Shown: one piece after another, positions 14,918-49,882 of the stretch
How positions within the stretch are numbered: the stretch's first letter is position 1
Layout: every line of letters begins with the position of its first letter
Origin: Planctomycetota bacterium
Lineage (GTDB): Bacteria > Planctomycetota > B15-G4 > SIAN01
Assembly: GCA_031409275.1 (NCBI GenBank)
Contig: JANNXA010000014.1
Span: 192,001 to 256,000, forward strand
DNA length: 64,000 nucleotides
Reading direction: 5' to 3'
Translations under genes and position numbers: made by a program
The notes under the pieces: generated by a model
What the model saw: the letters and a program-made list of their open reading frames with translations, nothing else
Databases searched by the model: none
What the model was told of the DNA's origin: nothing

Positions 14918-16021
14918 ATGCCCGTCTCGCTGATGGCCCTGCTCGCTTCGCTGCTCCTCCTGCAGACGCCGCCGTCCGATCCATCGCCCGCCGCATGCGA
15001 TGAGGCGCTCGCGACCTTCGAGAACTCGCTCGCCGACGTGCAGGCCGCGACGCTCGCCGACCTTGCCGCCGCGCTCAAGGCACTGCCGGCCGCGCCCCTC
15101 CGGCAACTGCGCGATCACGCCAGGAAGACGCTCACGGTCGAGCTGCGACCGGGCCCGCCTCCATGGTTCGATCCGGTGGAATACGCCGGCGCCGAGGCGG
15201 CGCGAGGCCGGGTCGTGCGCAAGCCGGTCGATCCCGCCGGCGAGGATGCGGCAGCGCAACGCGGCCGCTTCCGGCCGTGGGAGAACGACCCGCCGTTCGC
15301 GATTCGCGTCGAATGGGACTTCGCCAGCGACCGCGCCGTCAAGAACAGCGACGCTCCGCTCGACAGCTTCGGCCAGCTCTTCAATGCGCTGAACGGCTAC
15401 GACCAGGACGCCGACGTGCTGGTCGCATGGCTGCTGTCGCGCTTCGACTTCGAGAAGAAGTTGGACGCCAAGGCGAGCTACTTCGCCCATTCCTACTGCG
15501 ATCTCGGCGGCCGCATCTATCCGGAGATCTCGCTCTACGACGCCTGGTCGTCGGGCACCGGGATGGACATGCCCGACGTCGACACCATCGCGTGGGCGCG
15601 ACTGCTGATGAAGGACAAGTCCTACGTCGCACCGCTGCCGGCCGACGCGCGCCGCCAGAAGCTCTACGACTCGCTCAGCGCCGGCTTCCTCGAGTACTTC
15701 CGCTACCGCATCTGGATCGAGGGGGCGGCGCAGATCTTCATCAACCCGGACGCGCCGTTGCGCGAGGCGCACGAGCCGATGCGACGCCGGCTGCTCCATC
15801 TCTTCACGGTCTGCAAAGGGGAGGTCGAGTCGATCGCCAAGCGGCTGAAGGAGCTCGGCACACGCGACCGCTTCATCGAGGCGATGGACGCCGAGATCGC
15901 GGCCGACCCGCGCGCCGACTCCGCCATCGCGCGATTCGTCGAGAAGCGCGTGCAGGAGCGCTGGACCGTCGCGCGCGCCTGCTACTCCGTCCTGCGCGCA
16001 CACGGCCTCCTCTCCGAATGA
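14918..16021 (+). CDS. Secreted hypothetical protein
   Basis: Signal-like MALLASLLLLQ and strong high-GC3 coding bias; no family recognised. Confidence 0.8.
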   Translation: MPVSLMALLASLLLLQTPPSDPSPAACDEALATFENSLADVQAATLADLAAALKALPAAPLRQLRDHARKTLTVELRPGPPPWFDPVEYAGAEAARGRVVRKPVDPAGEDAAAQRGRFRPWENDPPFAIRVEWDFASDRAVKNSDAPLDSFGQLFNALNGYDQDADVLVAWLLSRFDFEKKLDAKASYFAHSYCDLGGRIYPEISLYDAWSSGTGMDMPDVDTIAWARLLMKDKSYVAPLPADARRQKLYDSLSAGFLEYFRYRIWIEGAAQIFINPDAPLREAHEPMRRRLLHLFTVCKGEVESIAKRLKELGTRDRFIEAMDAEIAADPRADSAIARFVEKRVQERWTVARACYSVLRAHGLLSE

Positions 16022-17048: not shown

Positions 17049-20000
17049 TCAGCTGCCCGACGGTCGCAGGTACGGGATCGCGATCGTTTCGACGTTCGGC
17101 AGCAGGAACGTGGACTTGCTGCCCACCAGCGTCGCACGGAACGCCACGTTCTGCCGCGTGTCGCAGGTGTCGACGCTGGTCGAGAAGCCGGTTCCGCCGG
17201 CCCCCTTGATCCCGTTCGATCCCTCGAATTCGAGCGTGACGGAGGTTCCGACCGGTTGGGTCGACGGAGGCGGATCGAGGATCGCCGGGAAGTAGTCCGG
17301 CAACAGCGTGTTGGTCGGGAAGACGCGCACGTACGGCGACGTGATCCGCGACGTCGTCTTCACGTAGTCGAAGACCGCGAGGTAGCGCGAGTTGTCGCCC
17401 GGAATCGGACTGATCGAGGTGGCATTGCCGGTCGCGCAGCGCGCCGCCACGGAGCCGTTGATGTTGTCGGGATTCAGCTTCGACGCCGGCGATCCTTGCG
17501 AGCCGACGCGCCAGCGCGGCTTGCCGAGGAAGTCGATCAGGCAGCCGATGACGAACGAGAAGCCGTTCTGTCCCGAGACCACCGTGTTCTGCGGGCGGAC
17601 GCGAACTTCGAAGAGCAGGCTGTCGCCGCCGACGTTCGCGTTGTTCGAGGTCCGGTAGTCGTCCCACTCGTTGCTGCCGCAGGAGTAGGTGCTGTTGACC
17701 GTCGTGCGCAGGTCCTTCTCGGCCTGCGGGATGTCGCCGTTGTTGTACTGGAACGGCACCGTGAACTCGGGCCACGGGTGCCAGGCGTTGCCGTCTCCCG
17801 GCGGCGTGAAGAGGTTGCCCTGCGTCACGCGGTACTTCGTTCCCGGCTGCACGCAAGTGACCAGCGTGTCCCAGTAGTTGGGGCCGTCGTCGCCGAAGCA
17901 GGTGGCGTTCGCACACGGACTCGTGCCGCCATCGATCAGGTCGATGAAGGAGGTGTAGTCGAACGGAACGCTCATGCCGCTGTCGGGAAACGAGGCGGCG
18001 CCCGTGTTGTTCTGCGAGATCGGGCGCATCGGCGAGTGCGCGCAGTGGATCGAGATGTCGTCATAGGTGTCGGTCGTGACGTTGCCGCCGATCGGCGCCC
18101 AGCTCACGCGGTACAGGTCGAGCAGCGTGCCCGCGAGCGCCACGCTGTTGGGCGAGCAGTCGAAATCACGCCACACCGTCTGGAAGCGTGCACCGTCGTG
18201 CGGCTGTCCTTGCGCCGTCACATTCGAATTGAGCGGCTCCGGCAAACCGGTGAAGAGCTTCGAGAACTGTCCTTCCGGTGGAAAGAACTCGTCGTGGATC
18301 TTGGTGACGAAGACGACCGGCGAGCCGGCCAGCACGCCGTTGGTCTGCAGATTCACGTCCGGGATCGGTCGGTAGTAGTTCGGCTGGTCTCGGTAGCCGA
18401 CGCCCGGCAGCCCGGTGGCGGGATCGATGCCGGTGACCGGACGGCCGCGCATGCGATGCACGATCACGCCCCAGCTCCGCGCGACCGGGGGATTGGGCTG
18501 CGTGATTGCCGCCTCAGCGGCAGTGAAGGTCGTGGTGTAGAGGATCGCGGGTTGCGCCGGATCGAAGCGCGAGTCGGGGAAGCCCACCGGCTGGCCGCCG
18601 AGGTCGACGATGCCGCGAACGCCGTCATCGAGGAACGTCGTGTAGGCCGATGAGCCGAGCTTCTGCTGCAGGTAGCTCGCGCGCGGCACGCTGGTGATCG
18701 CGAGCTGGAGGTTCTTGCTGTTCTTGCCCCACCCGACCACCTCGAAGGTGCCGGCGGCCTGGTCGACGCGGATCGGGCGGATGGTCGCGACCGTCTGCGT
18801 CGAGTCGAGCGAGACGTCGGTCAGCAGTTCCTGGAGTTCGCCGCCATCGGGACTCGCCGAAACGCGAAACGTCTCCCATTGCAGGAACGAATCGTCGGCC
18901 ATCGGCTCGGTGAAGCGCACGCGCAATTCGCAGAAGGTGGGCAGCGTGTTGCGCAGGTCGAGCGGGCCCGCTACGACGTTGCCGGAGCCGTCGATCTCCC
19001 ATGCCTCCACGAAGTTCGCGAGGCTCGCGTTCGCTCCGTTCTGCGGATTGTCCGCATCGAAGCGGGTCGGATCGATCGGGTCGGTCAGCTCAGGCTCGAA
19101 GAGCTCCGCTCGCTCGAGGCGGCACGTGTCGCCGTCCTGCGGCAGCAGCGTGAAGAGTCCGTTGATGGTCACGGTGTCGACGCTGTTGCCGGAGATGACG
19201 TGCGTCTCCTCGGCGGGAGCGCCCGGCCGCAAGACGAGCTTCGCACCGGCCCATTCGCCGCGCCCCGACTTCGACAGCGTCGAGAACGAAGCGCCGGCGA
19301 ACCGGACGCTGCTCGCGCCGGCCACGTCGCCGCCCACGAGGTCGACGACACGCGTGTCCGCGAGCGTACGCACGATGCGCGGCACCGAGACGTCGGGCAG
19401 GAAGCCGTTGTAGGTCTCGTTGGTCGGGATCAGCTGGTTCTGCGCGATGAAGTCGAGGACGCGGTTGCCCGGGTTGATGCCGATGGGCGTCGCCACTTCA
19501 CCGAGCCCGTCGGTGCGCGCGCCAAGGAACGCGCCGCCGGTCGAGCGCAGGACGCTCGGCCCGGTGCGCGGGAGTCGCAGCTTGAGGAAGCCGGTCGCGT
19601 CGGCGCGCGGCTCGCCGCTCGGGCCGAAATTGACAGGGCTCTCCGGGAATCCCACGCTCGTCGCGCCAGACGGGTTGATCCAGATCGTGCGCGCCCCAAC
19701 CTGGGTGATCTCCACGGGGACCGGCGTGCCATCCTGTTGACGCACCTGCACCGAGCCCGCGGTCACGAGCGCACCGTTGGCGTCGATCTCGTCGGCGCGC
19801 AGCGAGCTCGCGTCGATGGGCGCGCTGAACTCGAGTTGGAGCACGCAGTTGCGAGGGATCACTCGCGGCAGGTAGCTCGAACCAAGTCCGAGCGACTGCG
19901 GAGCATCGAGGTCGACGCCGCCCGCCAGCGGCTGCAGCGTTCCCGGTAGCGCCAGACCGGTCACGGCATCGATCTCGACCGTCGTCAGCGGGCTCACGAG

Positions 20001-20174
20001 GCGCGGACCGCTGCCCTCATCGACGAGGCGTCCGTAGTTCACATCGTTCAGGCGGAACCCTGAACTCTTGGTGCCGGCTGGCGATCCACCGCCGCCCGAG
20101 CACGCGCCGATCGCAAACAAGGCGGCGGTCGAGAGCACGCCCAGGAGTCGGGGAGGACGGTTCGAGCGGAACAT
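17049..20174 (-). CDS. Large Ig-like-domain lipoprotein, paralog A (1041 aa)
   Basis: GAGGAG SD plus ATG at 20174; lipobox AIGAC followed by SGGGG; Ig-like motifs LQLEFSAPID, LRVRFTEPM and GIVDLGGQP. Confidence 0.85.
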   Translation of the reverse strand: MFRSNRPPRLLGVLSTAALFAIGACSGGGGSPAGTKSSGFRLNDVNYGRLVDEGSGPRLVSPLTTVEIDAVTGLALPGTLQPLAGGVDLDAPQSLGLGSSYLPRVIPRNCVLQLEFSAPIDASSLRADEIDANGALVTAGSVQVRQQDGTPVPVEITQVGARTIWINPSGATSVGFPESPVNFGPSGEPRADATGFLKLRLPRTGPSVLRSTGGAFLGARTDGLGEVATPIGINPGNRVLDFIAQNQLIPTNETYNGFLPDVSVPRIVRTLADTRVVDLVGGDVAGASSVRFAGASFSTLSKSGRGEWAGAKLVLRPGAPAEETHVISGNSVDTVTINGLFTLLPQDGDTCRLERAELFEPELTDPIDPTRFDADNPQNGANASLANFVEAWEIDGSGNVVAGPLDLRNTLPTFCELRVRFTEPMADDSFLQWETFRVSASPDGGELQELLTDVSLDSTQTVATIRPIRVDQAAGTFEVVGWGKNSKNLQLAITSVPRASYLQQKLGSSAYTTFLDDGVRGIVDLGGQPVGFPDSRFDPAQPAILYTTTFTAAEAAITQPNPPVARSWGVIVHRMRGRPVTGIDPATGLPGVGYRDQPNYYRPIPDVNLQTNGVLAGSPVVFVTKIHDEFFPPEGQFSKLFTGLPEPLNSNVTAQGQPHDGARFQTVWRDFDCSPNSVALAGTLLDLYRVSWAPIGGNVTTDTYDDISIHCAHSPMRPISQNNTGAASFPDSGMSVPFDYTSFIDLIDGGTSPCANATCFGDDGPNYWDTLVTCVQPGTKYRVTQGNLFTPPGDGNAWHPWPEFTVPFQYNNGDIPQAEKDLRTTVNSTYSCGSNEWDDYRTSNNANVGGDSLLFEVRVRPQNTVVSGQNGFSFVIGCLIDFLGKPRWRVGSQGSPASKLNPDNINGSVAARCATGNATSISPIPGDNSRYLAVFDYVKTTSRITSPYVRVFPTNTLLPDYFPAILDPPPSTQPVGTSVTLEFEGSNGIKGAGGTGFSTSVDTCDTRQNVAFRATLVGSKSTFLLPNVETIAIPYLRPSGS

Positions 20175-20432
20175 CGGTGGCTCCTCGCGGATGCGGCCAG
20201 CGAGGAGCGTCGACCCACGGATGCGATCGAGGGCGCGGCTCGGCGGCCACTCTCCCTTACTGCGCAGCGTGTGCCGTTCGTGCCACTGCAGCTTCCCGGG
20301 GGAAGCACGCGCGCCGCTCCACCGATCGTGCGACACCGAACATGTTCCAGCTCGCAGCGCTCGCGCTCCGCCCGGGCGCCCCGCGCCCATGGGGACGTCC
20401 GCGGTGAAGCGCGTCAGCGACCGCGAGCCTGC

Positions 20433-20450
20433 GCGGCGATGGATCGCCGC
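20433..20450. terminator. Short hairpin downstream of lipoprotein paralog B
   Basis: GCGGCGAT-GG-ATCGCCGC, about 10 nt after the stop codon. There is no U-tract. Confidence 0.35.
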
Positions 20451-20459
20451 CGACCGCGC

Positions 20460-23400
20460 TCAGCTTCCGGAAGGCCGCAGGAACGGGATCGCCACGGTGT
20501 CGAGGTTCGGGAGCAGCAACGATTGCTTGTTGCCGACCAGAGTCGCGCGAAACGCGATGTTGCCCTTGGTGTCGGCGATATCGACGACAGTCGAGAAACC
20601 GGTTCCGCTCGCGCCCTTCGTCGAAGTCGCCCCTTCGAACTCCAAGGTGACCGAGGTACCGACCGGCTGCGAGGAGGGCGGCGGATCGATGATCGCCGCG
20701 AAGTAGTCAGGGAGCACCGTGTTCGTCGGGTAGACGCGGACGTAGGGCGAAGTGATCCGCGACGTCGTCTTCACGTAGTCGAAAACGCCGAGGTAGCGCG
20801 AGTTGTCGCCGGGCACCGGCGCGGTCGAGGTCGTGTTGCCTTTGGCGCAGCGGGCTGCCGGCTGGTTGAGGTTGTCGGGGAAGAGCCGGGTCGTCGGCGA
20901 CCCTTGCGAACCGACCCGCCATCGCGGGTTGCCAGCGAAGTCGATGAGGCAGCCGATGACGAACGAGAAGCCGTTGCGACCGGTGACCGTCGTCGTTTGC
21001 GGACGCACGCGCACCTCGAACAGGAGGCTGTCGCCGCCAAGGTTCCCGAAGCCGCCGCTTCGATAGTCCCCCCACTCCTCGCCGCAGCCGTTGTAGGTGC
21101 TGTTGACCGAACTGCGCAGGTCCTTCTCGGCCTGCGGGATATCGCCGTTGTTGTACTGGAACGGCACGGTGAACTGCGGCCACGGATGCCAGGAGTTGCC
21201 GTCACCGGGCGGCGTGAAGAGGTTGTCCTGCGTCACACGGTATTTGGTCCCCGGCTGCACCGTCGTGACCAGGGTGTCCCAGTGGTTGGGCGCATGATCG
21301 GAACCGCAGAAGGCGCCTGGGCACGGGTTCGATCCGCTGCCGTCGATGAAGTCGATGAAGGTCGCGTAGTCGAACGGAATGCTCATGCCGCTCGAGGGAT
21401 AGGAAGCTCCGCCGGTGTTGTTCTGGGAGATCGGCCGCATCGGCGAGTGGGCGCAGTGAATCGAGATGTTGTCGTAGTTGTCGGTCGAGACGTTGCCGCC
21501 GATCGGCGCCCAGCTCACTCGGTAGAGGTCGAGCAGCGTGCCGGCCAGCGCAGCGCTGTTGGGCGAGCAGTCGAAATCGCGCCACACCGTCTGGAAGCGA
21601 GCTCCATCGTGCGGCTGATTCTGCGCCGTGACGTTGGAAGCAAGCGGTTCCGGAAGGCCGGTGAAGAGCTTCGAGAACTGCCCTTCCGGCGGGAAGTACT
21701 CGTCGTGGATCTTGGTGACATAGACCACCGGCGAGCCTGCCAGCAGGCCGTTGGTCTGCAGGTTGACGTCCGGAATCGGTCGGTAGTAGTTCGGCTGATC
21801 GCGATAGCCGATGCCCGGCAGCCCCGTCGCCGGATCGATGCCGGTGACCGGCCGTCCGCGCATGCGATGGACGAGCACGCCCCAGCTCCGCGCAACCGGA
21901 GGATTGGGCTGGGTGATCGCCGCCTCGGAAGCGGAAAAGGTCGTGGTGTAGCGGATCTCGGGTCGGGCGGGATCGAAGCGCGAGTCAGGGAACCCCACCG
22001 GCTGTCCGCCGAGGTCGACCACGCCGCGAACGCCGCTGTCGAGGAACTCGGTGTACGCCGAGGAGCCGAGCTTCTGCTGGAGATAGCTTGCGCGCGGCAC
22101 GCTGGTGATCGCGAGCTGGAGGTTCTTGGTGTTTTTGCCCCAGCCCACCAGCTCGAAGGTGCCGGCAGCCTGGTCGAGTCGGATCGGGCGGATGATCGCG
22201 GTGGTCTGCGTGACATCGAGCGCCACGTCGGTCAGCAGTTCCTGGAGTTCGCCGGCGTCGGGGCTTGGCGAGACGCGGAACGTCTCCCACTGCAGCACCG
22301 AGTCGTCGTCGATCGGCTCGCTGAAGCGAACGCGCAGCTCGGAGAAGGTCGGCAGCGCGTCACGCAGCGAGATCGGCCCCGCCACGACATTTCCCGCCGC
22401 GTCGATCTCCCATCCCTCGACGAAGCTCGCGAGGCTGGTGTTCTCGGCGTTCTGGGGGTTGTCGGCGTCGAAGCGCGTGGTGTCGATCGGATCGGTGAGC
22501 TCAGGCTCGAAGAGCTCGATTCGCTCGAGCTGGCACGCATCGCCATCCTGCGGTGGCAGGACGAAGTTCGACTCGACGCTGATCGTGTCGACCGTGTTGC
22601 CGACGACGACCCGCGTCTCCTCGTCGGGCGCACCTGGCCGCACCACGAGCTTGGCACCGGCCCACTCCCCGAGACCGCCCTTCGCCAGAGTTGAGAACGC
22701 GGCCGCGATGAACCGCACGCTCGCCGCGCCCACGACGTCACCGCTGCCGAGATCGACCACGTGCCGATCCGCGTAGGTCCGCACGATCCGCGGCACCGAA
22801 ACGTCGGGCAGGAAACCGTTGTAGGTCTCGTTGGTCGGGATCAGCTGGTTCTGCGCGATGAAGTCGAGGACGCGGTTGCCGGGATTGAGGCCGACGGGGG
22901 TCGCCAGTTCGCCGAGCCCATCGGAACGCGCGCCCAGGAAGGCACCTCCCGTCGAACGGAGGATGCGCGACCCGTTACGCGGCAGGCGCAGCTTGAGGAA
23001 TCCCGTCGCGTCGGCGCGCGGCTCTCCGGAAGGCCCGAAATCGACGGGACTCGGCGGGAAACCGATGCCGCTCGCGGCGACGGGATCGATCCAGAGGGTG
23101 CGCGCGCCCGCCAACGTGACGACGACTGGAATCGGCGTTCCGTCCTGCAACCGAACCTGCACCGAGCCGGCGGTGACCAGCGCCCCGTTGGCGTCGATCA
23201 CATCGGCGGCGACCGAGGCCGGATCGATGGGAGCCGAGAACTCGAGCTGCAGGATTCCGTTGCGCGGCACCACGCGCGGCAAATAGCTCGATCCGAGGCC
23301 GAGCGACTGGAGGGAATCGACGTCGCCTCCCGACGCCAGCGGGGCGAGCGTGCCCGGAACGATGCGGCCGGTCGTGAGGTCGGTGTCGACCGTGGTGAGC

Positions 23401-23588
23401 GGACTCACGAGCCGCGGCCCGCTGCCGTCGTCGACGAGTCGACCGTACTTCACGTCGTTCAGGAGAAAGCCCGAGCTCTTCTTTCCTTGCGACGTTCCAC
23501 CGCCTCCGCCTGAACAGGCGGACACCGCCAGCAGCCCAGCGGAGGCCAGAACGAGCTTCGGCGATCGTGCGCGAAGGGAGTTCAACAT
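20460..23588 (-). CDS. Large Ig-like-domain lipoprotein, paralog B (1042 aa)
   Basis: ATG at 23588; lipobox AVSAC-SGGGGG; colinear with paralogs A and C over the full length. Confidence 0.85.
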   Translation of the reverse strand: MLNSLRARSPKLVLASAGLLAVSACSGGGGGTSQGKKSSGFLLNDVKYGRLVDDGSGPRLVSPLTTVDTDLTTGRIVPGTLAPLASGGDVDSLQSLGLGSSYLPRVVPRNGILQLEFSAPIDPASVAADVIDANGALVTAGSVQVRLQDGTPIPVVVTLAGARTLWIDPVAASGIGFPPSPVDFGPSGEPRADATGFLKLRLPRNGSRILRSTGGAFLGARSDGLGELATPVGLNPGNRVLDFIAQNQLIPTNETYNGFLPDVSVPRIVRTYADRHVVDLGSGDVVGAASVRFIAAAFSTLAKGGLGEWAGAKLVVRPGAPDEETRVVVGNTVDTISVESNFVLPPQDGDACQLERIELFEPELTDPIDTTRFDADNPQNAENTSLASFVEGWEIDAAGNVVAGPISLRDALPTFSELRVRFSEPIDDDSVLQWETFRVSPSPDAGELQELLTDVALDVTQTTAIIRPIRLDQAAGTFELVGWGKNTKNLQLAITSVPRASYLQQKLGSSAYTEFLDSGVRGVVDLGGQPVGFPDSRFDPARPEIRYTTTFSASEAAITQPNPPVARSWGVLVHRMRGRPVTGIDPATGLPGIGYRDQPNYYRPIPDVNLQTNGLLAGSPVVYVTKIHDEYFPPEGQFSKLFTGLPEPLASNVTAQNQPHDGARFQTVWRDFDCSPNSAALAGTLLDLYRVSWAPIGGNVSTDNYDNISIHCAHSPMRPISQNNTGGASYPSSGMSIPFDYATFIDFIDGSGSNPCPGAFCGSDHAPNHWDTLVTTVQPGTKYRVTQDNLFTPPGDGNSWHPWPQFTVPFQYNNGDIPQAEKDLRSSVNSTYNGCGEEWGDYRSGGFGNLGGDSLLFEVRVRPQTTTVTGRNGFSFVIGCLIDFAGNPRWRVGSQGSPTTRLFPDNLNQPAARCAKGNTTSTAPVPGDNSRYLGVFDYVKTTSRITSPYVRVYPTNTVLPDYFAAIIDPPPSSQPVGTSVTLEFEGATSTKGASGTGFSTVVDIADTKGNIAFRATLVGNKQSLLLPNLDTVAIPFLRPSGS

Positions 23589-23747
23589 CGGCGAGTCCCC
23601 AGGATCGGGAGCGGTAACGACCAGCGGCGCCAACCGCGGAGATCATGGCACGATCGAACCGAAAACGATGTCGAGCGGGCCATGGGGCCCGCTCGACAAG
23701 AAGAAAGTGCTTAGCAGAGCAGGTCAGATCAAGCGACCGGCTCGCGA

Positions 23748-26700
23748 TCAGGTGCCGGAAGGCCGCAGATACGGGATCGCCACGGTGTCGCAGTTGGGAA
23801 GCAGCAAGGTCGAAATATTGCCGGTCAGTGTGGCGCGGAACGCGACGTTGGGCTTGGTGTCGCAGATGTCGACGCTCGTCGAGAAGCCAGTGCCGGACGC
23901 GCCCTTGATGGTGGTGGCCCCTTCGAATTCGAAGGTGACCGAAGTGCCGACCGGCTGGCTGCTGACCGGCGGATCGACGATCACCGGGAAGTAATCCGGC
24001 AGCAGCGTTCCGGACGGGAAGACGCGGACATACGGCGAGGTGATGCGTGAGGTCGTCTTCACGTAGTCGAAGACGCCGAGGTAGCGCGAGCTGTCGCCCG
24101 GGTTCGGCGTCGCGGACGTCTGATTGCCGACGGCGCAACGCGCGGCCGCCGAGGTGTTGATGTTGTCGGGCTGCAGACGCGATGTCGGCGAGCCTTCCGA
24201 ATGCGCGCGCCAGTCCGGCTTGCCGGACGCATCGATCAGGCAGCCGATGACGTAGGAGAAGCCGTTGAGGCCGGTGATGAGGCCTTGCTGCGGCCGGATG
24301 CGCACCTCGAAAAGGAGGCTGTCGCCGCCCTTGTTGTCGACGAAGGGATCGGAGTTGTAGTCGCGGTAGTCGACCCAGGGGTTCCCGCCCTGGCAGGTGA
24401 AGTCATCGTTGATCGACTTGATGAGGTCTTTTTCCGCGGTCGGGGTGTCGCCGTTGTTGTACTGGAAGCGCACGTCGAAGGTCGGCCACGGATGCCACGC
24501 GTTTCCGTCGAACGGCGGCGTGAAGAGGTTGCTCTGGGTGATCTTGTACTTCGTCCCGGGCTGGACCACGGTCACCAGGGTGTCCCAGTAGTGCGGCCCG
24601 TCGTTCGACGAGCAGGTGGTCCCGGCGCACGGGTCGTTGCCGCCGCCATCGAACTCGTCGACCCAGGTCGCATAGTCGAACGGGACGCCGAGTCCGCTCT
24701 GCGGATAGGTCGCAGCCGCGGTGTCGTTCGCCGAATTCGGTCGGATCGGCGAGTGCGCGCAATGGACCGAGATGTTGTCGTAGCTGTCGGTGCTGACGTT
24801 GCCGCCGATGGGCGCCCAGCTCACGCGGTAGAGATCGAGCAACGTCCCGGCGAGACCAAGGCTGTTGGGCGAGCAGTCGATGTCGCGGAACACCGACTGG
24901 AAACGCGCGCCGTCGTGCGCCGAGTTCTGCGCCGTCAGGTTCGTGGTGATCGGCTCGGGCAATCCGTTGAAGAGCTTCGAGAACTGGCCGATCGGCGGCG
25001 GGAAGAACTCGTCGTGGATCTTGGTGATGTAGACCACCGGCGAGCCGGCGAGCAGGCCGTTCGTCTGGAGATTCACGTCCGCGATCGGCAGGTAGTAGTT
25101 GGTCTGGTCCCGGAAGCCGACGCCGGGCTTCCCGGTGGCCGGATCGAGACCGGTCACGGGCCGTCCGCGCATGCGGTGCACCATGACGCCCCAGCTGCTC
25201 ACGACGGGTGGCACCGGCTGCGTCGACGCCGTCTCAGCCGACGTGAACGTCGTGAAGAAGCGGATCGCTGGGGACGCCGAATCGAAGCGCGACAGCGGGA
25301 ACCCAAGCGGCTGACCGCCGAGGTCGAGCACTCCGCGAAATCCGAGGTCGAGGAACGAGTCGTACTCTGCGGTCGTCAGGAACTGCTGCAGGAACGTGGC
25401 GCGCGGAATCGTCGAGATGGTCAGCTGGAGGTTCTTGGTGTTCTTGCCCCAACCGGTGATCTGGAACGTTCCCGCCGCCTGATCGACGCGCGCCGGACGG
25501 ATCGTCGCAACGGTCTGCGTCGAGTCGAGGAAGACCTCGGTCAGGAGCTCCTGGGTTTCGCCGCCGTCAGGATTCAGCGAGACACGGAAGGTCTCCCACT
25601 GCCGGAAGGAGTCGTCCGCCATCGGCTCGCTGAAGCGAACTCGCAGCTCCGAGAAAGAGGGCACCGCCGTACGCAAGCTGGTCGGACCGGCGACGGCGTT
25701 GCCGGCGGCGTCGATCTCGTAGACCTCGACGAAATTGGCGAGGCTCGAGTTGTTGAGGTTCTCCGGGTTGTCGGCGTCGAACAGCAACGGATCGATGGGA
25801 TCGGTGAGATCGGGCTCGAAGTACTCGGTCCGCTTCAACTCGTAGGCGTCGCCGTTCTGGGGCTGCGTTGCGAACGCCGTCGACAGCACGAGCGTGTCAC
25901 CGTCGTTCGAGACGATCGAGAGCGTCTCCTCGCTCGAGGTCCCGGGTCGCAGGACGAGGCTCGCGCCCGCCCACTCGCCGAGGCCGCCATTGGAGCTGGT
26001 GTTGTCGTTGGAAGAGACGTCGTTCAGCGAGGTCGCCGTGGCGCTGTCACCCGCGAGGGTGTCGAAGGTCCGCGGCACGTCGTAGATGCGCACGATGCGC
26101 GGGATCGACAGGTCCGGCAGGAAGCCGTTGAAGGTTTCGTTGGTGGGGATGAGCTGGTTCTGAGCGATGAAGTCGAGGACGCGATTGCCGGGGTTGACGC
26201 CGATCGGCGTGGCGACTTCGCCGAGCCGGTCCGAGCGCTGCCCGAGGAATGCGCCGCCGGTCGAGCGCAGGATGTTCGCGCCCGTTCGCGGCAGTCGCAA
26301 CTTGAGGTAGCCGGTGGCGTCGGCGCGCGGCTCGCCGCTCGGCCCGAAGTCGACTGGACTTGCCGGGAATCCCACCTGACCGTTGGCAACCGGGTTGATC
26401 CAGATCGTGCGCGCGCCGACAAGGCGCACCTCGACCGGCACCGGCGTCCCATCTTCGAGGCGCACTTGGACCGAGCCTGCGGTGACCAACGCGCCGTTGC
26501 CGTTGATGGTGTCGGCGACGACCGACGCCGCCGCGACGGGCGCGGAGAATTCGAGCTGAAGGACCGCGTTGCGCGGCACGACCCGCGGCAAGTAGCCCGT
26601 CCCGAGACCGAGCGACTGCGGAGCGAAGACGTCGACGCCAACCGCGAGTGGCTCGAGCGTTCCCGGGATGAGGTCACCCGTGATCGGATCGACCTGCGCC

Positions 26701-26894
26701 GTCGTCAACGGGCTGACGAGCGACTCGTTCACGCCGTCGTCGATGAGGCGGCCGTACTTGACGTCGTTCAGCAGGAACGAGGCGCTCTTGCCGCCGGCCG
26801 AACTCGACCCGCCGCCCCCGCCGCAGTTCACGATCAGGCCGCTCGCTACGAGCAACGTCGCCCAGGAGCCGACTCGCTTCGAACCCATGCTCAT
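23748..26894 (-). CDS. Large Ig-like-domain lipoprotein, paralog C (1048 aa)
   Basis: GGGAG SD plus ATG at 26894; lipobox-like LIVNC-GGGGG; colinear with A and B and ends PYLRPSGT. Confidence 0.85.
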   Translation of the reverse strand: MSMGSKRVGSWATLLVASGLIVNCGGGGGSSSAGGKSASFLLNDVKYGRLIDDGVNESLVSPLTTAQVDPITGDLIPGTLEPLAVGVDVFAPQSLGLGTGYLPRVVPRNAVLQLEFSAPVAAASVVADTINGNGALVTAGSVQVRLEDGTPVPVEVRLVGARTIWINPVANGQVGFPASPVDFGPSGEPRADATGYLKLRLPRTGANILRSTGGAFLGQRSDRLGEVATPIGVNPGNRVLDFIAQNQLIPTNETFNGFLPDLSIPRIVRIYDVPRTFDTLAGDSATATSLNDVSSNDNTSSNGGLGEWAGASLVLRPGTSSEETLSIVSNDGDTLVLSTAFATQPQNGDAYELKRTEYFEPDLTDPIDPLLFDADNPENLNNSSLANFVEVYEIDAAGNAVAGPTSLRTAVPSFSELRVRFSEPMADDSFRQWETFRVSLNPDGGETQELLTEVFLDSTQTVATIRPARVDQAAGTFQITGWGKNTKNLQLTISTIPRATFLQQFLTTAEYDSFLDLGFRGVLDLGGQPLGFPLSRFDSASPAIRFFTTFTSAETASTQPVPPVVSSWGVMVHRMRGRPVTGLDPATGKPGVGFRDQTNYYLPIADVNLQTNGLLAGSPVVYITKIHDEFFPPPIGQFSKLFNGLPEPITTNLTAQNSAHDGARFQSVFRDIDCSPNSLGLAGTLLDLYRVSWAPIGGNVSTDSYDNISVHCAHSPIRPNSANDTAAATYPQSGLGVPFDYATWVDEFDGGGNDPCAGTTCSSNDGPHYWDTLVTVVQPGTKYKITQSNLFTPPFDGNAWHPWPTFDVRFQYNNGDTPTAEKDLIKSINDDFTCQGGNPWVDYRDYNSDPFVDNKGGDSLLFEVRIRPQQGLITGLNGFSYVIGCLIDASGKPDWRAHSEGSPTSRLQPDNINTSAAARCAVGNQTSATPNPGDSSRYLGVFDYVKTTSRITSPYVRVFPSGTLLPDYFPVIVDPPVSSQPVGTSVTFEFEGATTIKGASGTGFSTSVDICDTKPNVAFRATLTGNISTLLLPNCDTVAIPYLRPSGT

Positions 26895-31650: not shown

Positions 31651-32385
31651 TCAATCGCGCGACGGCAGTCGGCTCACACGGCGGAAGTACTGCTCCATCC
31701 AGGTGCGGTAGCGCTGCGGAAATTCCTCGGCGCTGCGCCGCTGCAGTGCTTCCGCTTCCTTGTCCGGCAGCATGCCCCAACGACCCGAGAGGTCGGTGCG
31801 CTCGAACTCCCCCGTCGCGCCGGGCGGCGGGCCTTGCTTGGCATCGCGCTGTTCGCCCTTGCTCGGGTCGGCGTCGCCCTTCTTCGGATCGGCGTCGCCC
31901 TTCTGCGGCTCGGGCTTGTCGCCGCCCGGGTTCTGGTCGGGCTTGGGCTGCGGCTGCAACTGGTCGGAATCGGGAGAGCGCGGGCGCTCGGGCGACTTCC
32001 CCTGCTTGCCCTGGCCATCTTTCGGCGGCGGCGGGCTGCCCTCTTCGCCGCTCGGCGGCGACTGCTGACTCGACTCCTCCGACTTCGACATCGCGATCAG
32101 CTCGTCGATCTGCTGCATCACGGCGTCCGACTTCGAGTCGGCCTCGTTCAGCAGCTCCTCGATCCGCTTCTGGTTGGCGGTGAGGGCGGTGTCGACCTTC
32201 GCGGGGTCGGCGCCGTTCAACAGCAGCGCGTCGATCTCCCGCATCGACGTGCGGATCCGGTAGATCAGCTGGCGCGCGCGTTCGGTGTCGGGGTCCATGG
32301 CCTGAGCGTTCGCATCGACTGCGAATCCGCCGGCCGCGGCGGCGAGCGCTCCCGCGATCACGATCCCATGCAGCGTGCGGTTCAT
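31651..32385 (-). CDS. Secreted low-complexity protein with DUF4175-like C-terminal motif
   Basis: ATGA overlap with the upstream gene; signal peptide ending ANA; coiled coil; P/K/G/D/Q linker; terminal WGMLP...FPQRYRTWMEQYFRR. Confidence 0.75.
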   Translation of the reverse strand: MNRTLHGIVIAGALAAAAGGFAVDANAQAMDPDTERARQLIYRIRTSMREIDALLLNGADPAKVDTALTANQKRIEELLNEADSKSDAVMQQIDELIAMSKSEESSQQSPPSGEEGSPPPPKDGQGKQGKSPERPRSPDSDQLQPQPKPDQNPGGDKPEPQKGDADPKKGDADPSKGEQRDAKQGPPPGATGEFERTDLSGRWGMLPDKEAEALQRRSAEEFPQRYRTWMEQYFRRVSRLPSRD

Positions 32386-35120
32386 CGCTCTTCTCCCGGC
32401 TTCTTGGAATCGCCCTCGGGCGGCGTCTCGCCACTCGCCGCGTCGCCCTCGGCGTCGCCCGCCGTCACCGACTCGACGAGCTTCTCGAAGATCTCGGTCA
32501 ACTCCGAATGGCGGTGGCCGAGCCGTTCGAGCAGCGCGAGTCGCGCGGTGAACAGCTCCGGATCCTGCTCCGCGCGCGCGGTGGTCCGCAGCGAGCGGAC
32601 ATCGTCCTGAACGTCCTGCTCGAGTCGCTTGAGCAGCAGCAGCTCGGCGACTGGCGGCACCAGACGCTGCACCTGCTGGCCACCCGACGGCGGCGGCTTG
32701 GGCGGCTCGCCGTTCTTCTGCTCTTCCTGCTTCTTCTTGGCCGCCTCCTGGCGACGCTTGCCCTCTTCGTCGAGCGACTGCAGCAGGCGATCGTAGCGCG
32801 AGACAACGTCGGCCGCGAGCACCTGCACGAACTCGCCCGTCTCCGCATCGCGGCCCGTGAGGCGCTCGCGCAGCTGCGCGAAGTCGGCGTTGTTCTTGCC
32901 GAGCACCCACGGGAAAGTCGGCGACGCCTCGGCCGCGAGCTTGTCGATCAGCTCCTGGTTCTCCTTGCCGATCGCTTCGGCATCGACCGTGAGCTTCTCG
33001 ACGCGCGGCCGCAGCCGACGCGGCAGCTTCTCGGCGCCGGCGCGATCGGTGTCGACCGTGACGAGCCCCTGCTCGAGTTCGGCCGATCGCGTGCGCAGCT
33101 CCTTCAGCTTGTCCTTCAGGCGGAAGAGCATCTCTTCGGAGCGGAGGTCCTGATAGAGCTGCTGCTCCTCCTCGAGCTGCTTCTGCATCTCGTCGAGGTT
33201 CTTCTCGGCCTGCTTCTGCTGATCGACCGCTTCCTCGTCCCCACCCTGATCGAGCTGCTGGCGGGCGCGCTGCATGTTGCGCTGCGCGGAGCCGCCCTGC
33301 TGCTGCCCCTGGTTCTGTTTGCGTTCCTTCATGCGCTGCATGAGGTCGCGCAGCTGCTCTTCGAGCTGGCGCTGCTCTTCGGCGAGCTGCTGGCGTTCCG
33401 CCCGCTCGGCCGCCTCGTCGCGCTTCTCCTGCTGCGCCTGTGCCTGCTGCGCCGCCGCTTGCGCCTGCTGCGCCGCCTTCTCGAGCGCCGCCTCGGCCTG
33501 CTGCTGCGGAGCCTGCGCCTGTTGCGGCTCGCCGCCGTTCAACTGCTCGGTCGCCTTCTGCATCTCCTTCGCGGCGTCCTTCAACGCTTGCTGGAGCGCC
33601 TGCTGCTGCTCGGGCTTCATGCCTCCGGGCGACGGCTTCGCGGACGCCGGATCCGAGGGGTTCTGCCCGTCCGACGGCGGCGTCAGCTGGCGACTCTCCT
33701 GCGCCGCGGCCTCGGCCTGGGCGCGCAGGAAATCCTGGCGAGCCGCGAGCGCTTCGGCCGCGCGCGCCTGCGCCTGCTGCTGCGTCGCTAGCGCTCGCTG
33801 CGCCTGCTCGATCTTCTGCAACGCCTGCTTGGCCGCTTCGAGACCGGGCGCCGCCTTCTGCGCCGCGAGGTCCTGCTGCGCCTGTTCGAGCTCCTCCGCG
33901 GCCTTGGCGAGCGCCTGCTGCGCAGCCTCCGATGCCTCCTTGCGATCGGCCGCTTGCGCGCCCGGCTGCGCGGCGGCCCGCTGCGCCTGCTCTTGCGCGC
34001 TGCGGGCGAGCGCTTCCGCTTGCGGCGCGAGCTCGCGCTCCTGGTTCGCGACGCTCGCCGCGGCGGCAGCGGCATCGGGCCGCTCGCGCCCATCGAGCGC
34101 CTTCTCGAGCGCCGCCTCGGCGGCTTTCAACGCCGCCTCCGCGGACTGTTGCTGCGCCGCGTCGGGACGCGCCGCGCCGGCCGCGGGCGTCGCCGCACGC
34201 AACGCCTCTTCGACTTTGCGCATCTCCTCGCTCAGCGCCGGCGCGCGCTCGACGATCTCGCTGCGCGCCTCTCCCAACCGCTGCGCCGCTTCGAGCAGCG
34301 CCTCCGCCTCGCCGCGCTCGAGCGCACGGCGGGCCTGCGTCAATGCGCTGCTGGCTTCACCCGCCCGCTCGCGCGCCTGCTCTTCGAGCTGCGCGACGAC
34401 GGCCTTCTGCCGCTCCGCAAGCGCGGCCACTTCCTTGGCGAGCGCCTCACGCGCAGCAGCCTCGGCAGCGCGCTCCTCGGGCGTGCCCGGCGGCTGCTCC
34501 GCAGCGGCCTGCGCGCTCTCCTGGGTCAGCGCTTTCTGCTTGGCCGACAGCTCCTCGAGCTTCTTCGCGAAGTCCGCGAGCTTGCGTGCCGGATCGCCGG
34601 TCGACTCTTCCGTCTTCTCGCGCAGCTCCTGCTGCTCACGACGTACGTCGGAGAGCTCCGCGATCGACTGCTTCATGTCGGCGAGCTGCTTCTCGAGCTC
34701 GTTCAGCGCGCGTTGATCGCGCAGCAGATCGAGGACCGCGCTCAGGTCCTTGAGCAGCTGCTCCTGCTGTTCGGGCGACTGCAGATTCTTCGGGTCGGCC
34801 AGCAGGTCGAGCAGCTTGTCCTTGCGCGACTCCAGATTGCGCGCATCGATCTCCCCCATCGCCTTGCGCAGCAGCTCGGCCTGGCGCGCCTTGCCTTCCG
34901 AGTCGAGCTTGGCGGCGAGCCGCTCCATGCGCTTCTTCAGCGAGGAGAGGCGGTCGAAGAGCTGCTCCTGGTCGTTCAGGACGCGTTCGCGATCGTCGTC
35001 ACCGCGCACCGCGGCGCGCGCGGACCACGGCAGCGCGCTGACGACGGCCATCAGCAGGAGCAGTCGCCGCGGGGTGCGTCGTGGCGTGGCGGGCGATGAG
35101 TCGTGGAGACGATGCAACAT
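32382..35120 (-). CDS. Secreted long Gln/Ala/Glu-rich coiled-coil protein (DUF4175-like)
   Basis: GGAGG SD plus ATG at 35120; signal peptide; heptad-rich body; C-terminal RLVPPVAELLLLKRLE. Confidence 0.8.
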   Translation of the reverse strand: MLHRLHDSSPATPRRTPRRLLLLMAVVSALPWSARAAVRGDDDRERVLNDQEQLFDRLSSLKKRMERLAAKLDSEGKARQAELLRKAMGEIDARNLESRKDKLLDLLADPKNLQSPEQQEQLLKDLSAVLDLLRDQRALNELEKQLADMKQSIAELSDVRREQQELREKTEESTGDPARKLADFAKKLEELSAKQKALTQESAQAAAEQPPGTPEERAAEAAAREALAKEVAALAERQKAVVAQLEEQARERAGEASSALTQARRALERGEAEALLEAAQRLGEARSEIVERAPALSEEMRKVEEALRAATPAAGAARPDAAQQQSAEAALKAAEAALEKALDGRERPDAAAAAASVANQERELAPQAEALARSAQEQAQRAAAQPGAQAADRKEASEAAQQALAKAAEELEQAQQDLAAQKAAPGLEAAKQALQKIEQAQRALATQQQAQARAAEALAARQDFLRAQAEAAAQESRQLTPPSDGQNPSDPASAKPSPGGMKPEQQQALQQALKDAAKEMQKATEQLNGGEPQQAQAPQQQAEAALEKAAQQAQAAAQQAQAQQEKRDEAAERAERQQLAEEQRQLEEQLRDLMQRMKERKQNQGQQQGGSAQRNMQRARQQLDQGGDEEAVDQQKQAEKNLDEMQKQLEEEQQLYQDLRSEEMLFRLKDKLKELRTRSAELEQGLVTVDTDRAGAEKLPRRLRPRVEKLTVDAEAIGKENQELIDKLAAEASPTFPWVLGKNNADFAQLRERLTGRDAETGEFVQVLAADVVSRYDRLLQSLDEEGKRRQEAAKKKQEEQKNGEPPKPPPSGGQQVQRLVPPVAELLLLKRLEQDVQDDVRSLRTTARAEQDPELFTARLALLERLGHRHSELTEIFEKLVESVTAGDAEGDAASGETPPEGDSKKPGEER

Positions 35121-35134
35121 GAACCAGCCTCCGT

Positions 35135-37474
35135 TCAGCGGCCACCGCTGCCAGGCAGCGGCGCAACCACACCGCGCGCCCGACGATTGATGTCGTCCTG
35201 GTCGTCGACGAGTCCCTGCCAAAGGTCGAGGATCTCCTGGTAGTCCTCGAACTCCTCCATCTTCTGCAGCAGCAGCGTGTAGATCTCGATCACCTTCTGC
35301 TGCGACGCCTGAGCGCCGACCAGCAATCCCAGCCGATCACCGGCGCGGCCGGCGAGACGCGCGCCGCGCAACTGCTCGAGCGCCCGCTGCGCATGCTGCT
35401 CGCTCGCCTGCAACGCGAGGTCGACCATCACCAACAGGTTGCCAAGCTGCTGCAAGGCACCGAATTCGCCGGCCGCATGCGCCGCCGCCAGCTTCGTGTA
35501 CGGAGCGAAGTCGAAGTTCGGGCCCGCGTCGGCCACCTGCAGTTCCAAGACCAGGAAGCCGACCGCGCGTTCCGCCGTCGGCGTCGGATCGAGCCGATTC
35601 AGCACGAACTCGGCCCCGATCTCGCACAGGTCGCGCGCCGCCTGGCGGGCGCTGCTGCCGACCCGCCCCTGCTCGACCTCGACCGACGTGAGCTCTCGCG
35701 TCTCGATGGCGCCGTCGCCCTGCGCGGCCAGCAGCGCGGCGAGGCCGGCGCTGCGCTCTTCCTGCGACTTCTTGGTCGACAGCACGCTCTGCTTCACGCG
35801 CTGCTGACGATCGTTCAACTTGCGCAGCTTCTCGCTGACGCTCACGACGTCGATCCGGCGGCCCGGCGCGGAGGTGACGTTGTGCGCCGGCGTGCCGGAG
35901 GGCTGCTCGCGGTTGTCGGCGACGGTCGCCGTGTAGAGGATCGACTCGCCCTCGGCGAGGCGCTCGAGCAGCGTTCCCTTGCCAAGTTCGAGGGTGGTGA
36001 GGTCGAGCGTCGAGTCGAGGACGTGCGGCTCGCCCGTGCCCGGAAGCAGCGCGAGCTGTGCACTGCCTTCGCCTTGCAGCGCCAGATGGCGGACCGCCGG
36101 ATCGTCGCCGCGCTTCAGATCGAGAGCGACGACCGTGACGCCGTAGTCATCATCGACGAGCAGCCGGAACGGGACCACCGCCTGCGCGGTCGCCTCGAGG
36201 TCGGAGACGGTCGGCCGCGCGATCTCGAGCACCGGCTTGCGATCGGCGAGCACGGTCAGCGGATAGTCGATCGGATGGAGGTTCTTGAAGCCGTTCTTGC
36301 CGGTGAGGTGCAGGTTGAGCGTCCCCGACTCCTCGGCGAGCACGCTCCCGCGCCACAGCCCCGGCGTCTTCGCGTCGGCGACCAGCGGCCGCGCCGTGCC
36401 GGGATCGCTGTGCAGAGTCAGCTCCGCTTCGCTGACGTCGCCGGCGGTCGCGACCTCGAGTTCGAGGAGCGTGCCGGCCGGCACCGCGAAGTCCTGGCGC
36501 TCTTCCCGCCGCGACGGTCGCTGCGTGTAGGCCGGCGGAGTGATCGTCGCCACTAGCCGTTCAACGGTCGGCGGCGGCACCACCTCCACCACCAGCGCGA
36601 TCGAGTGGCCGGGATCGTCGCCGCCCGCCGCCGACAGCTCCATCGGCCGCGTCGTGTTGCGGAAGCGGTAGCCGAATTCACCGGCGCCACCCTCGCGCGG
36701 CGCCATCCGGATCTCCTCCGAACCGGCGCGCCCCCCTTCACGCACGATCAGCAGCACCTCATCGGGCACTGAACCGCGCGCGCGCACCACGATCGGCAGG
36801 CTCCCGCCGCGCGCGACGAGGACGCGGCGCGCGACGCCGTTGGCATCGCGCTCCACCCGGAAATGGGTCGACTCGGAGGCCGCGGCGACATCGAGTTCGA
36901 GATGCGTTCGGCGCGGCCAGTCGCGATCGGCGCCGACGAATCGTTCGAGGAAGATCCACGCTTCCTCGCGCCGGAGGAGTGCGAAGCCGGCGACCAGCAG
37001 CGTCGCGACCGCCGCCAACCCACCGAGCCGGCGCAGCAACCGCGGCTCGAAGATCGCATCGAAGGCGACGGTCGCCGCGCGCGACGACGTCGCGGTGCGC
37101 CATTGCTCGAGCAGTTCCGGCGAGACGTCGGCGGCGGGCGCGGCCGCCGCTTCGACTTCGACCATCGAAGCGAGCGCACCGTGCAGCTCGGGGTGGCGCC
37201 GCTCGACCGCCAGCGCCATGTCGCGCGCCACCACGCGCTTGCGCAACGGCCGCGCGATCAGCATCCAGAAGCGGACGGCGAAGCTCAGCGCCGCGATCAC
37301 CAGGACGAACTGCCGCGCGCCGACCGGCAGCCAGAGGAAGCGGTCGACGGCGAACTGGAGCACCAGGAAGCCGGCGCACTCGGCCAGGAGCCGCAGCGCG
37401 CCAGCGACGAGCCAGCGGCGGCGGAGGGCCGCTCGCAGCGATTCGAGGCGATCGGTGATGGGATGCAGGGTCAT
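35135..37474 (-). CDS. DUF4175-like membrane protein with periplasmic Ig-like domains and helical tail
   Basis: Three N-terminal TM segments; VERRHPELHGALASMVE; ITPPAYT; DRKPVLEI; DDDYGV. Confidence 0.8.
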   Translation of the reverse strand: MTLHPITDRLESLRAALRRRWLVAGALRLLAECAGFLVLQFAVDRFLWLPVGARQFVLVIAALSFAVRFWMLIARPLRKRVVARDMALAVERRHPELHGALASMVEVEAAAAPAADVSPELLEQWRTATSSRAATVAFDAIFEPRLLRRLGGLAAVATLLVAGFALLRREEAWIFLERFVGADRDWPRRTHLELDVAAASESTHFRVERDANGVARRVLVARGGSLPIVVRARGSVPDEVLLIVREGGRAGSEEIRMAPREGGAGEFGYRFRNTTRPMELSAAGGDDPGHSIALVVEVVPPPTVERLVATITPPAYTQRPSRREERQDFAVPAGTLLELEVATAGDVSEAELTLHSDPGTARPLVADAKTPGLWRGSVLAEESGTLNLHLTGKNGFKNLHPIDYPLTVLADRKPVLEIARPTVSDLEATAQAVVPFRLLVDDDYGVTVVALDLKRGDDPAVRHLALQGEGSAQLALLPGTGEPHVLDSTLDLTTLELGKGTLLERLAEGESILYTATVADNREQPSGTPAHNVTSAPGRRIDVVSVSEKLRKLNDRQQRVKQSVLSTKKSQEERSAGLAALLAAQGDGAIETRELTSVEVEQGRVGSSARQAARDLCEIGAEFVLNRLDPTPTAERAVGFLVLELQVADAGPNFDFAPYTKLAAAHAAGEFGALQQLGNLLVMVDLALQASEQHAQRALEQLRGARLAGRAGDRLGLLVGAQASQQKVIEIYTLLLQKMEEFEDYQEILDLWQGLVDDQDDINRRARGVVAPLPGSGGR

Positions 37475-37477
37475 GCG

Positions 37478-38638
37478 TCAGCGCTGCAGGATCGGGAGGT
37501 AGCGGTACGGTACCTGCAGCACGATGCAGGCCACCGCCGTGGAGAAGTTGCGGCCCGGGCCGACCGGATTGGGCCACGCTCCGTCCGCCGCCTGCGAGAA
37601 GGCGGTGCCGGTCTCGAGCAGCTCGCCCGACACCGAACGCCAGTACGTGTCCCACCAGCGGTCACCGGTGATGAACATCGCCTGAGCCGCGTAGTAGTGG
37701 CCGTACCAGTAGAAGTAGTGGCAGCGCCAGTCGGGCCGCGACACGCGCCGCTGCTGCTCCTGCAGGAACTCGAGGCTGTTGCGCAACGTCGAGGTGTCGT
37801 AGCGCGCCGCGTGGTAGAGCGAGGTGATCCCGGCCGCCGTCAGCGCGAACGAGGAGCGCGACATGTCCTCGTCCTGGTACTGGTAGCGAAACGCCCCTTT
37901 GCCGAGCGCGTAGTAGCCGCCTTCGTAGACGTCATGGAAGCCAGGCCAGCCCGGATCGTCCTGAACCTGGCTCGCCTTCACGTATTCGACCGCGCGATCG
38001 ATCGTGTCCGCCGGCACTCGAATGCCGACGTTGCGCGCCGCGCGCAACGCCATCAACTGGCACACCGTGATCGACATGTCCGACTCGAGCGCGAACGGCT
38101 GGTAGCGCCACGATCCGCGCGTGTTCTGCGAGTTCTTGATCAGGTCGATCGCTTTCTGCAGCGCCGCGCGCACCTCGTTGCTGGTGGTCTGACCGAAGAC
38201 CTCGGCCAGGAACAGCGTCGCGAAGGCGTGGTCGTACATGCGCGATTCGCGATACGTGATGTAGCCCTGGTCGTTCTGGTGGGCGATCAGGAACTTCACG
38301 GCGCGGTCGAGCACGCCGCCGTAGGCACCGCGATCGGGCAGGTGGCCGCCCGCCAGGAACGCCATGCCGCACAACGCGGTGACGCCGATGTGCGGGACGT
38401 CGGCCTCCTGCACCGTGTAGTCCTGGTTGACCTTGAAGCCGACGCTGCCGATCCAGCAGCCATCGCGCTGCTGCGTCTTGGCAAGGAAGTCGAGTCCGCG
38501 ATCGACCGCCGCCACGACGCGCGGAGTGATCTCGGTGGCGACATCGTCGCTCGCCGACGCGCGCCCTCCCGGCGCGATCGATCCGGCGAACAGCGTCGCC
38601 CACAGCGTCGCCGCTGCCACTCGGCCGAGCGTTCCCAT
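37478..38638 (-). CDS. Secreted prenyltransferase/squalene-oxidase-repeat protein
   Basis: GGAGG SD plus ATG at 38638; AVDRGLDFLAKTQQRDGCW, MYDHAFATLFLAE, SQNTRGSWRY, YGHYYAAQAM and C-terminal YLPILQR. Confidence 0.9.
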   Translation of the reverse strand: MGTLGRVAAATLWATLFAGSIAPGGRASASDDVATEITPRVVAAVDRGLDFLAKTQQRDGCWIGSVGFKVNQDYTVQEADVPHIGVTALCGMAFLAGGHLPDRGAYGGVLDRAVKFLIAHQNDQGYITYRESRMYDHAFATLFLAEVFGQTTSNEVRAALQKAIDLIKNSQNTRGSWRYQPFALESDMSITVCQLMALRAARNVGIRVPADTIDRAVEYVKASQVQDDPGWPGFHDVYEGGYYALGKGAFRYQYQDEDMSRSSFALTAAGITSLYHAARYDTSTLRNSLEFLQEQQRRVSRPDWRCHYFYWYGHYYAAQAMFITGDRWWDTYWRSVSGELLETGTAFSQAADGAWPNPVGPGRNFSTAVACIVLQVPYRYLPILQR

Positions 38639-38640
38639 GG

Positions 38641-48838: not shown

Positions 48839-49882
<1,044 letters not shown>

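Follow-up and report, generated by a model that had tools for sequence, protein, structure and literature searches.

Tandem Planctomycetota Lipoproteins with a Predicted Phage-Like Nested Head and Relatives in a Type IVa Pilus Locus

Among the closest described counterparts of the proteins considered here are phage tail proteins and lipoproteins of type II secretion systems (T2SS). The nozzle of phage SU10 is described as a split platform with an inserted propeller (PMC9509320), and the tripod protein of phage phi812 as having a base resembling carbohydrate-binding modules (CBM) 16/61 and Cwp84-like leg domains (PMC13433997). In Acinetobacter baumannii, a class of Gly/Ser motif is needed, though not by itself enough, for T2SS-dependent display of lipoproteins such as InvL at the surface (PMC12802150). 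Here we compare these systems with three tandem genes, g1, g2, and g3, in a 64,000-nucleotide stretch of a Planctomycetota genome (assembly GCA_031409275.1, contig JANNXA010000014.1, positions 192,001 to 256,000; hereafter the window). We see an even chance that their products are displayed on the surface as adhesins, or as receptors that bind glycans or other polymers, exported via a secretin, historically tied to a pilus, and duplicated to vary the range of ligands.

The structure of g3 was modeled with AlphaFold2 from an alignment of 101 sequences. The model had a mean predicted local distance difference test (pLDDT) of 91.9 and a predicted template modeling score (pTM) of 0.84, with disorder confined to residues 1 to 35; the tip folded alone reached a pLDDT of 94.4 and a pTM of 0.93. 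The predicted layout comprises a lipid anchor, a Gly/Ser tether, two Big_5-like immunoglobulin (Ig) domains with a small barrel, and a platform sandwich that is split by an inserted jelly-roll tip (Table 1). Two Ig-like segments had been proposed in a first-pass annotation of this DNA, and the model and fold search back them; Pfam gave sub-threshold Big_5 matches at residues 404–469 of g1 (E 0.006) and 107–169 of g2 (E 0.0045) and none in g3. Distant members of the family pass the Pfam cut-off for Big_5 (PF13205). Other Big_5 proteins, including the S-layer protein SbsC, share the two Ig-like stalk domains with g1–g3, which themselves do not reach the cut-off. The Big_5 module is a generic one and carries no functional assignment.

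Fold-search rows covered Ig2, the barrel, the platform, and the tip of g3, with Ig1 outside them. In seven podophage tail chains, the segments that aligned to the two platform halves were the extreme N- and C-termini (Z 6.0–8.9). The leading platform matches were 9nwi_Y (Z 8.9), 8zkm_E (8.6), and 7z47_G (8.5), followed by CBM61 (7.5), with CBM16 and Eph domains also found. Like the nozzle or muzzle platforms of SU10, T7, crAss001, Pa223, and VP1, the predicted g3 platform is a sandwich whose N- and C-terminal halves enclose an insert. In contrast, the insert of g3 is a jelly roll and not a beta-propeller, and the comparison (Z 6–8.9) yielded no evidence of a hexameric channel. The phi812 tripod and the g3 model share a CBM16/61-like sandwich nesting a Cwp84-like domain, and the alignment of chain 9euf_0, which we infer to be the tripod protein, spans the two head domains with 264 residues, a Z of 6.9, and a root-mean-square deviation of 12.7. 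However, identity is approximately 10% at Z 7, and g3 is a cellular lipoprotein with a Big_5 stalk that lacks the spine, flap, and fibre trimerisation parts and has no match in PHROGs.

The best fold matches of the tip were modules of polymer- or glycan-binding type together with parts of phage tails, namely 9d93_Pa (a Bxb1 tail-tip chain, Z 7.8), 9euf_0 (7.0), 9kqz_A and 7tog_A (N-terminal modules of two esterases, 6.9 and 6.6), 4ci7_A (lectin-like domain of Cwp84, 5.9), and PHR domains. The matches that bear on a CBM-type beta-sandwich fold score at Z 5.9–7.8, which is the background level of the tool. The predicted fold class of the tip is shared with the Cwp84 lectin-like domain, the N-terminal modules of AcXE and the polyvinyl alcohol esterase, and PHR (Z 5.2–6.9), whereas the g3 tip is about twice as long, carries Cys-rich loops, and is 5–11% identical to them. 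The barrel best matched 8vjh_D of the phage Chi tail tip (Z 8.7) and 8rk3_g (8.2). Ig2 matched alpha-2-macroglobulin MG and SbsC Ig domains at Z of about 8 (SbsC 7.9) and CopC at 7.2. The Foldseek comparison that the first-pass annotation had proposed gave no coherent whole-protein match in the PDB or BFVD (TM-score ≤0.17) and none for the tip at E ≤0.001, and the ESM Atlas offered no usable whole-protein match, with leads for the tip below 0.9. A pilus tip adhesin of the PilY1 type was rejected on the basis of no beta-propeller in the g3 model and no PilY1 match in Pfam or NCBIfam, and a phage tail protein or prophage remnant on the basis of no PHROGs match and neighboring genes that are cellular.

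Differences between the three paralogs concentrate at positions 261–340, 721–760, and 821–840, corresponding to the barrel and to tip loops. The barrel is the most divergent domain (45% identity of g1 to g2 or g3), and across the family the tip loops vary in length, with co-occurring cysteines. Since the paralogs differ in these loops, their ligands probably differ. The invariant residues of the family lie in the Ig stalk.

Each of the three proteins has a lipobox Cys after a hydrophobic stretch, followed by the Gly run that had been noted from the sequence; the lipobox of g1, IVN-C, is atypical at position −1. The lipobox pattern was matched in 83 of the 101 family members. Gly or Ser occupies 7, 6, and 6 of the seven residues after the Cys in g1, g2, and g3, respectively, and more than four of the seven in 72 of the 83 family members with a lipobox, as compared with 6 of 82 crude candidate lipoproteins from the same genome. 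InvL and the Klebsiella protein PulA resemble g1–g3 in the lipobox, a Gly/Ser-rich motif, a large multidomain body, and a T2SS in the genome; they differ in their other domains, no sequence similarity was found, and the ancestral linkage of the present family is to a type IVa pilus locus. The genome under study encodes 6 secretins, 12 T2SSE-family ATPases, and 21 prepilin motifs over the cut-off. T2SS-type clusters with a secretin, ATPase, GspF-like protein, and pseudopilin were located on two contigs, C52 (gspD-E-F-G-type) and C55.

To the three proteins and their homologs, here called family A, the genomic context of relatives adds a pilus. We sampled 92 loci from 73 genomes, with approximately 8–10 kb on each side, preferring long contigs and strong profile matches. 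In 49 of the 73 genomes, representing 16 of 20 taxonomic families, a homolog lay within approximately 10 kb of pilD or of a gspC-like PDZ gene; the count stood at 50 before one gspC-like label (locus L042, 22.8 bits), which probably marks an unrelated PDZ protein, was discarded. The composite gene order reads rne, rplU, rpmA, obgE, a pilT/U-type ATPase, gspC-like, coaX, mnmE-like, pyrB, A, B, a Big_5-type protein, pilD, an OmpA-domain lipoprotein, an EF-G-like gene, pilT, pilB, pilC, and pilin. Some distant families carry a shorter A-like gene (approximately 700–900 residues) whose tip scores weakly and which was assigned to A by its chassis and position. The synteny and copy-number survey that had been suggested at the outset thus placed most relatives in a type IVa pilus locus and found duplications recurring independently. 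The pilus locus, the sibling family B, and the phage-like nested head were all absent from the first-pass annotation.

Family B directly abuts A in 43 of the 73 genomes. It comprises lipoproteins with a 20% glycine core that share Ig1 with A (HHalign, 93–96%). A C-terminal module is also common to A and B (HHalign, 97.4%, E 1.3e-11), while the tip is not. Comparison of the whole A and B profiles supported Ig1 only, leaving Ig2 (13%) and the N-terminal half of the platform unsupported; the full chassis attributed to family B is thus partly inferred. Family B was found in 39 of 41 relatives from the same order and, like A, expands. Relative G006 has many B matches, five of them in tandem on one contig. 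The two copies in the genome under study (L074:7867-11097, minus strand, on contig C16, and L075:8588-11917, minus strand, on C27) have a lipobox and Gly run, a Big_5-like stalk, and a glycine core that is possibly polyglycine-II.

Should g1–g3 be adhesins or receptors of this kind, the Gly/Ser motif would hold the lipidated protein at the inner membrane while the disulfide-containing protein folds in the periplasm. A secretin-based machine, either the T2SS of this genome or its pilus system, would then move it to the outer surface. There the two Big_5-like Ig domains would form a rigid body that raises the nested head, and the tip could bind surfaces, aiding pilus-driven attachment. Surface location, export route, and ligand binding are putative in this scheme.

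Several observations weigh against it. All of the fold Z values (6–9) are within the range the search tool calls common background, so that the likeness to phage heads is carried by the recurrent nested topology and not by any single score. The Cwp84 lectin-like domain is without demonstrated carbohydrate binding (PMC4089489), and identity between paralogs in the tip (70–81%) is barely below that in the platform (80–82%). A GGG sequence can retain lipoproteins at the inner membrane of Pseudomonas (PMC12802150). The Gly/Ser motif is reported there as a Lol-avoidance signal too, so that a periplasmic location is possible. Members in taxonomic family f2 have no lipobox. The pilus locus also carries the housekeeping genes rplU, rpmA, obgE, coaX, mnmE, pyrB, and the EF-G-like gene; because these remain linked at a similar frequency (coaX in 35 and obg in 34 of the 73 genomes), the pilus linkage is suggestive and not proof, and hitch-hiking is possible. 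Finally, the link was lost in the taxonomic family of this genome (0 of 6 genomes) and in f2 (0 of 9). In this genome the pilus locus is on contig C49 without A or B, the three A copies are on C14, and the B copies are elsewhere. The C49 locus (L073, C49:137200-155296) is of type IVa, with pilMNO-like genes, a secretin, pilT/U, pilB, pilC, and pilin interleaved with rplU, rpmA, obgE, and coaX, and it includes a GspC-like PDZ membrane protein.

An unlikely alternative would make A and B structural accessory parts of the type IVa pilus or secretin machine and not free adhesins, for example an A–B complex at the pilus base or tip, maybe facing the periplasm. It would account for the frequent adjacency of A and B, for A lying, in 16 of 20 families, between gspC-like/coaX and pilD, and for linkage to pilD (33 of 73) and gspC-like (43 of 73) being more frequent than that to the nearer genes mnmE (21 of 73) and pyrB (20 of 73). 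The invariant residues in the stalk, together with the fact that nozzle platforms and tripods are assembly parts, are in agreement with such a role. However, the two families expand independently of each other and their copies lie unlinked in the genome under study, which argues against a fixed stoichiometry.

Distinctly unlikely, in our assessment, are subunits of an S-layer-like lattice or fibrous appendage, which the first-pass annotation had favored along with conserved assembly interfaces. The paralog profile matched 37 of 41 relatives in the order, a near-universal presence that would suit a lattice, as would the rigid multidomain body of the model and the resemblance of Ig2 to SbsC. Nevertheless, several of the sequence blocks named as near-invariant are core strands or intramolecular junctions of a compact monomer model, no S-layer family matched in Pfam or NCBIfam, and the codon bias of the genes is mid-range (68–73rd percentile, on a crude scale). 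The top 40 genes on that scale include sequences that we take to be EF-Tu, GroEL, and EF-G. The interface proposal is unsupported.

We consider it very improbable that g1–g3 are surface enzymes with an active site hidden in the tip. The polar tip residues Asp-628, Arg-669, Asp-672, Asp-686, Asn-870, Arg-889, and Asp-927 are kept even in distant members; still, they could just as well form a site for a metal or ligand, those members show no conservation of the His residues, and the matched esterase parts are non-catalytic N-terminal modules (chain ranges 2–182 and 9–176). Phase or antigen switching, with one of the three copies expressed at a time, is the least probable reading and close to negligible: tandem paralogs with variable loops would fit it and the hairpin after g1 could make expression unequal, but every copy is intact with its own Shine–Dalgarno-like site, the copies share no long identical tract that conversion could use (65 nt at most), no notable simple repeats or invertible ends occur at the array, and the flanking genes encode PurM and a PP-loop enzyme, the neighbors scanned including no recombinase. 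An antigenic-variation cassette was likewise rejected, the scans made having found no silent copies, recombinase, or invertible or slippery DNA. The lectin-like tip agrees with the variant adhesin repertoire of the first-pass annotation, as does the variability of the tip loops. No switching machinery was seen.

Returning to the adhesin or receptor reading, a wider version of it is doubtful but may be worth stating. Many Planctomycetota families, most of them uncultured, would share an ancient modular adhesin chassis, consisting of the lipid anchor, Big_5 stalk, and split phage-nozzle-type platform, that takes different phage-receptor-like tips (a lectin-like jelly roll in A, a glycine-rich domain in B). 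A and B would then form a dedicated, undescribed adhesion module of the type IVa pilus that assembles like the phage tripod and was amplified into repertoires for recognition of substrates or prey. If the structural parallel reflects real descent, it would link a phage receptor-binding architecture to a cellular adhesin. The subject bears on surface attachment in deep-branching planctomycetes and on the role of their type IV pili; a preprint on Saltatorellota reports type IV pilus genes without canonical twitching (10.1101/817700). Two large, near-universal, unannotated lipoprotein families of the pilus locus that expand repeatedly are concrete targets for study. The tandem array itself is one among many routine expansions, and the undescribed family, its sibling, and their locus are the point of interest.

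The three co-oriented genes are uninterrupted open reading frames with a Shine–Dalgarno-like site at each, and they align over their full lengths, bearing out the colinearity claimed earlier; all five of the near-invariant blocks and the C-terminus P(Y/F)LRPSG(S/T) were also present in the alignment. Identity is 79% between g2 and g3 and 69–70% between g1 and either, which matches the earlier grouping of two closer copies, termed A and B there, against a third, C, if those labels follow coordinate. Four-fold-degenerate sites are 52–60% identical, so that synonymous sites are near saturation, and identical runs reach 65 nt at most, indicating old duplicates without recent conversion. Sequencing run X2, possibly of the source DNA itself, gave contigs that cover the array with 0 differences; their depth there is 15–21, similar to the flanks, and the exception is the 65-nt piece common to g2 and g3, at a depth of 38. 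An assembly artefact, the possibility raised earlier for two of the copies, is ruled out by the four-fold-site divergence, the 65-nt maximum run, and this tiling at single-copy depth. A tblastn search of the 5.6-Mb genome found no further close copy. Terminator-like sites numbered 3 against 5.5 expected in shuffles, and a promoter scan found no sigma-70-type promoter at the array.

Table 1. Positions in the window of the three genes, the predicted domains of g3, and neighboring features.
Feature	Position	Strand	Details
g1 (P0001), paralog 1	23748..26894	−	lipoprotein, 1048 aa (amino acids); Cys24 then GGGGGSS
g2 (P0002), paralog 2	20460..23588	−	lipoprotein, 1042 aa; Cys25 then SGGGGGT
g3 (P0003), paralog 3	17049..20174	−	lipoprotein, 1041 aa; Cys25 then SGGGGSP; the modeled protein
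Terminator-like hairpin between g1 and g2	23669..23698	−	13-bp; consensus match only
g3 predicted Ig1, residues ~40–260	19395..20057	−	Big_5-like, conserved insertions; Pfam, model, HHalign to family B
g3 predicted small beta-barrel, residues ~267–360	19095..19376	−	inserted in Ig2; fold search
g3 predicted Ig2, main part, residues 386–555	18510..19019	−	first strand ~259–266; fold search, Pfam
g3 predicted platform beta-sandwich, N-terminal half, residues 567–619	18318..18476	−	fold search
g3 predicted jelly-roll tip, residues 620–939	17358..18317	−	Cwp84-lectin-like/AcXE-CBM/PHR class, variable Cys-rich loops; fold search
g3 predicted platform, C-terminal half, residues 940–1040	17055..17357	−	fold search; homologous to family B C-terminus
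Proteins of 712, 395, and 367 aa	28264..31589; 14918..16021	−; +	no Pfam matches
MoxR AAA ATPase, DUF58, BatA/vWA, vWA-glutamine amidotransferase-like, PQQ-repeat, and prenyltransferase-fold proteins	32385..50104	−	genes in a single run; PQQ-repeat protein of 2,400 aa
Tandem pair of AlgX-like SGNH proteins	59203..61607	−	adjoining an S46 peptidase

As the first-pass annotation had stated, no characterized family was recognized: Pfam gave the weak Big_5 matches described above, and no match was found in NCBIfam for g1, in PHROGs for proteins of the family, or in PDB sequences with the paralog profile. Among the 101 proteins retrieved by the profile search, those with names are mostly hypothetical proteins of Planctomycetota, and the labels of three are different or unspecific. 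The paralog profile matched 2 of 19 phylum members from outside the order. A broader profile, scoring two candidates per genome, matched 94 of 301 genomes of the phylum, strongly in eight families and elsewhere weakly and mostly via the C-terminal module; two large families had no match (0 of 16 and 0 of 17 genomes). Judged from these searches, the family is an undescribed one of Planctomycetota-restricted lipoproteins, and no paper on it was found in the literature searched, which excluded most subscription papers. A FastTree phylogeny of 67 rows displayed independent duplications in several lineages. The split of g2 from g3 appears to predate divergence from a same-genus genome with two copies at the array locus.

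Extra family A copies in two other genomes (L042:8295-11816 in G021, and L047 in G009) are broken over at least two frames, and are decayed paralogs or assembly errors. Homologs in f2, such as L037:7688-14707, have an additional N-terminal region of approximately 200 residues with a weak PPC match and frequently precede a protease gene (PHROG protease match).

Pfam identified the neighbors of the array as purM and the PP-loop enzyme, which we presume to be LarE-like. The proteins of 712, 395, and 367 residues listed in Table 1 are kept beside the array in all three same-genus genomes examined, and PHROGs gave no match for the 712- and 367-residue proteins. Elsewhere in the genome, contig C22 carries a second tandem trio (L076:6323-17479, plus strand; C22:42322-53478) of Cys–Gly-run lipoproteins of approximately 1,000–1,100 residues with a YVTN-type beta-propeller, which is possibly a third member of the same surface repertoire. 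More Cys–Gly-run lipoprotein paralogs, with repeat-rich, propeller-like bodies, were located at C16:47022-51547 and C16:96186-98714.

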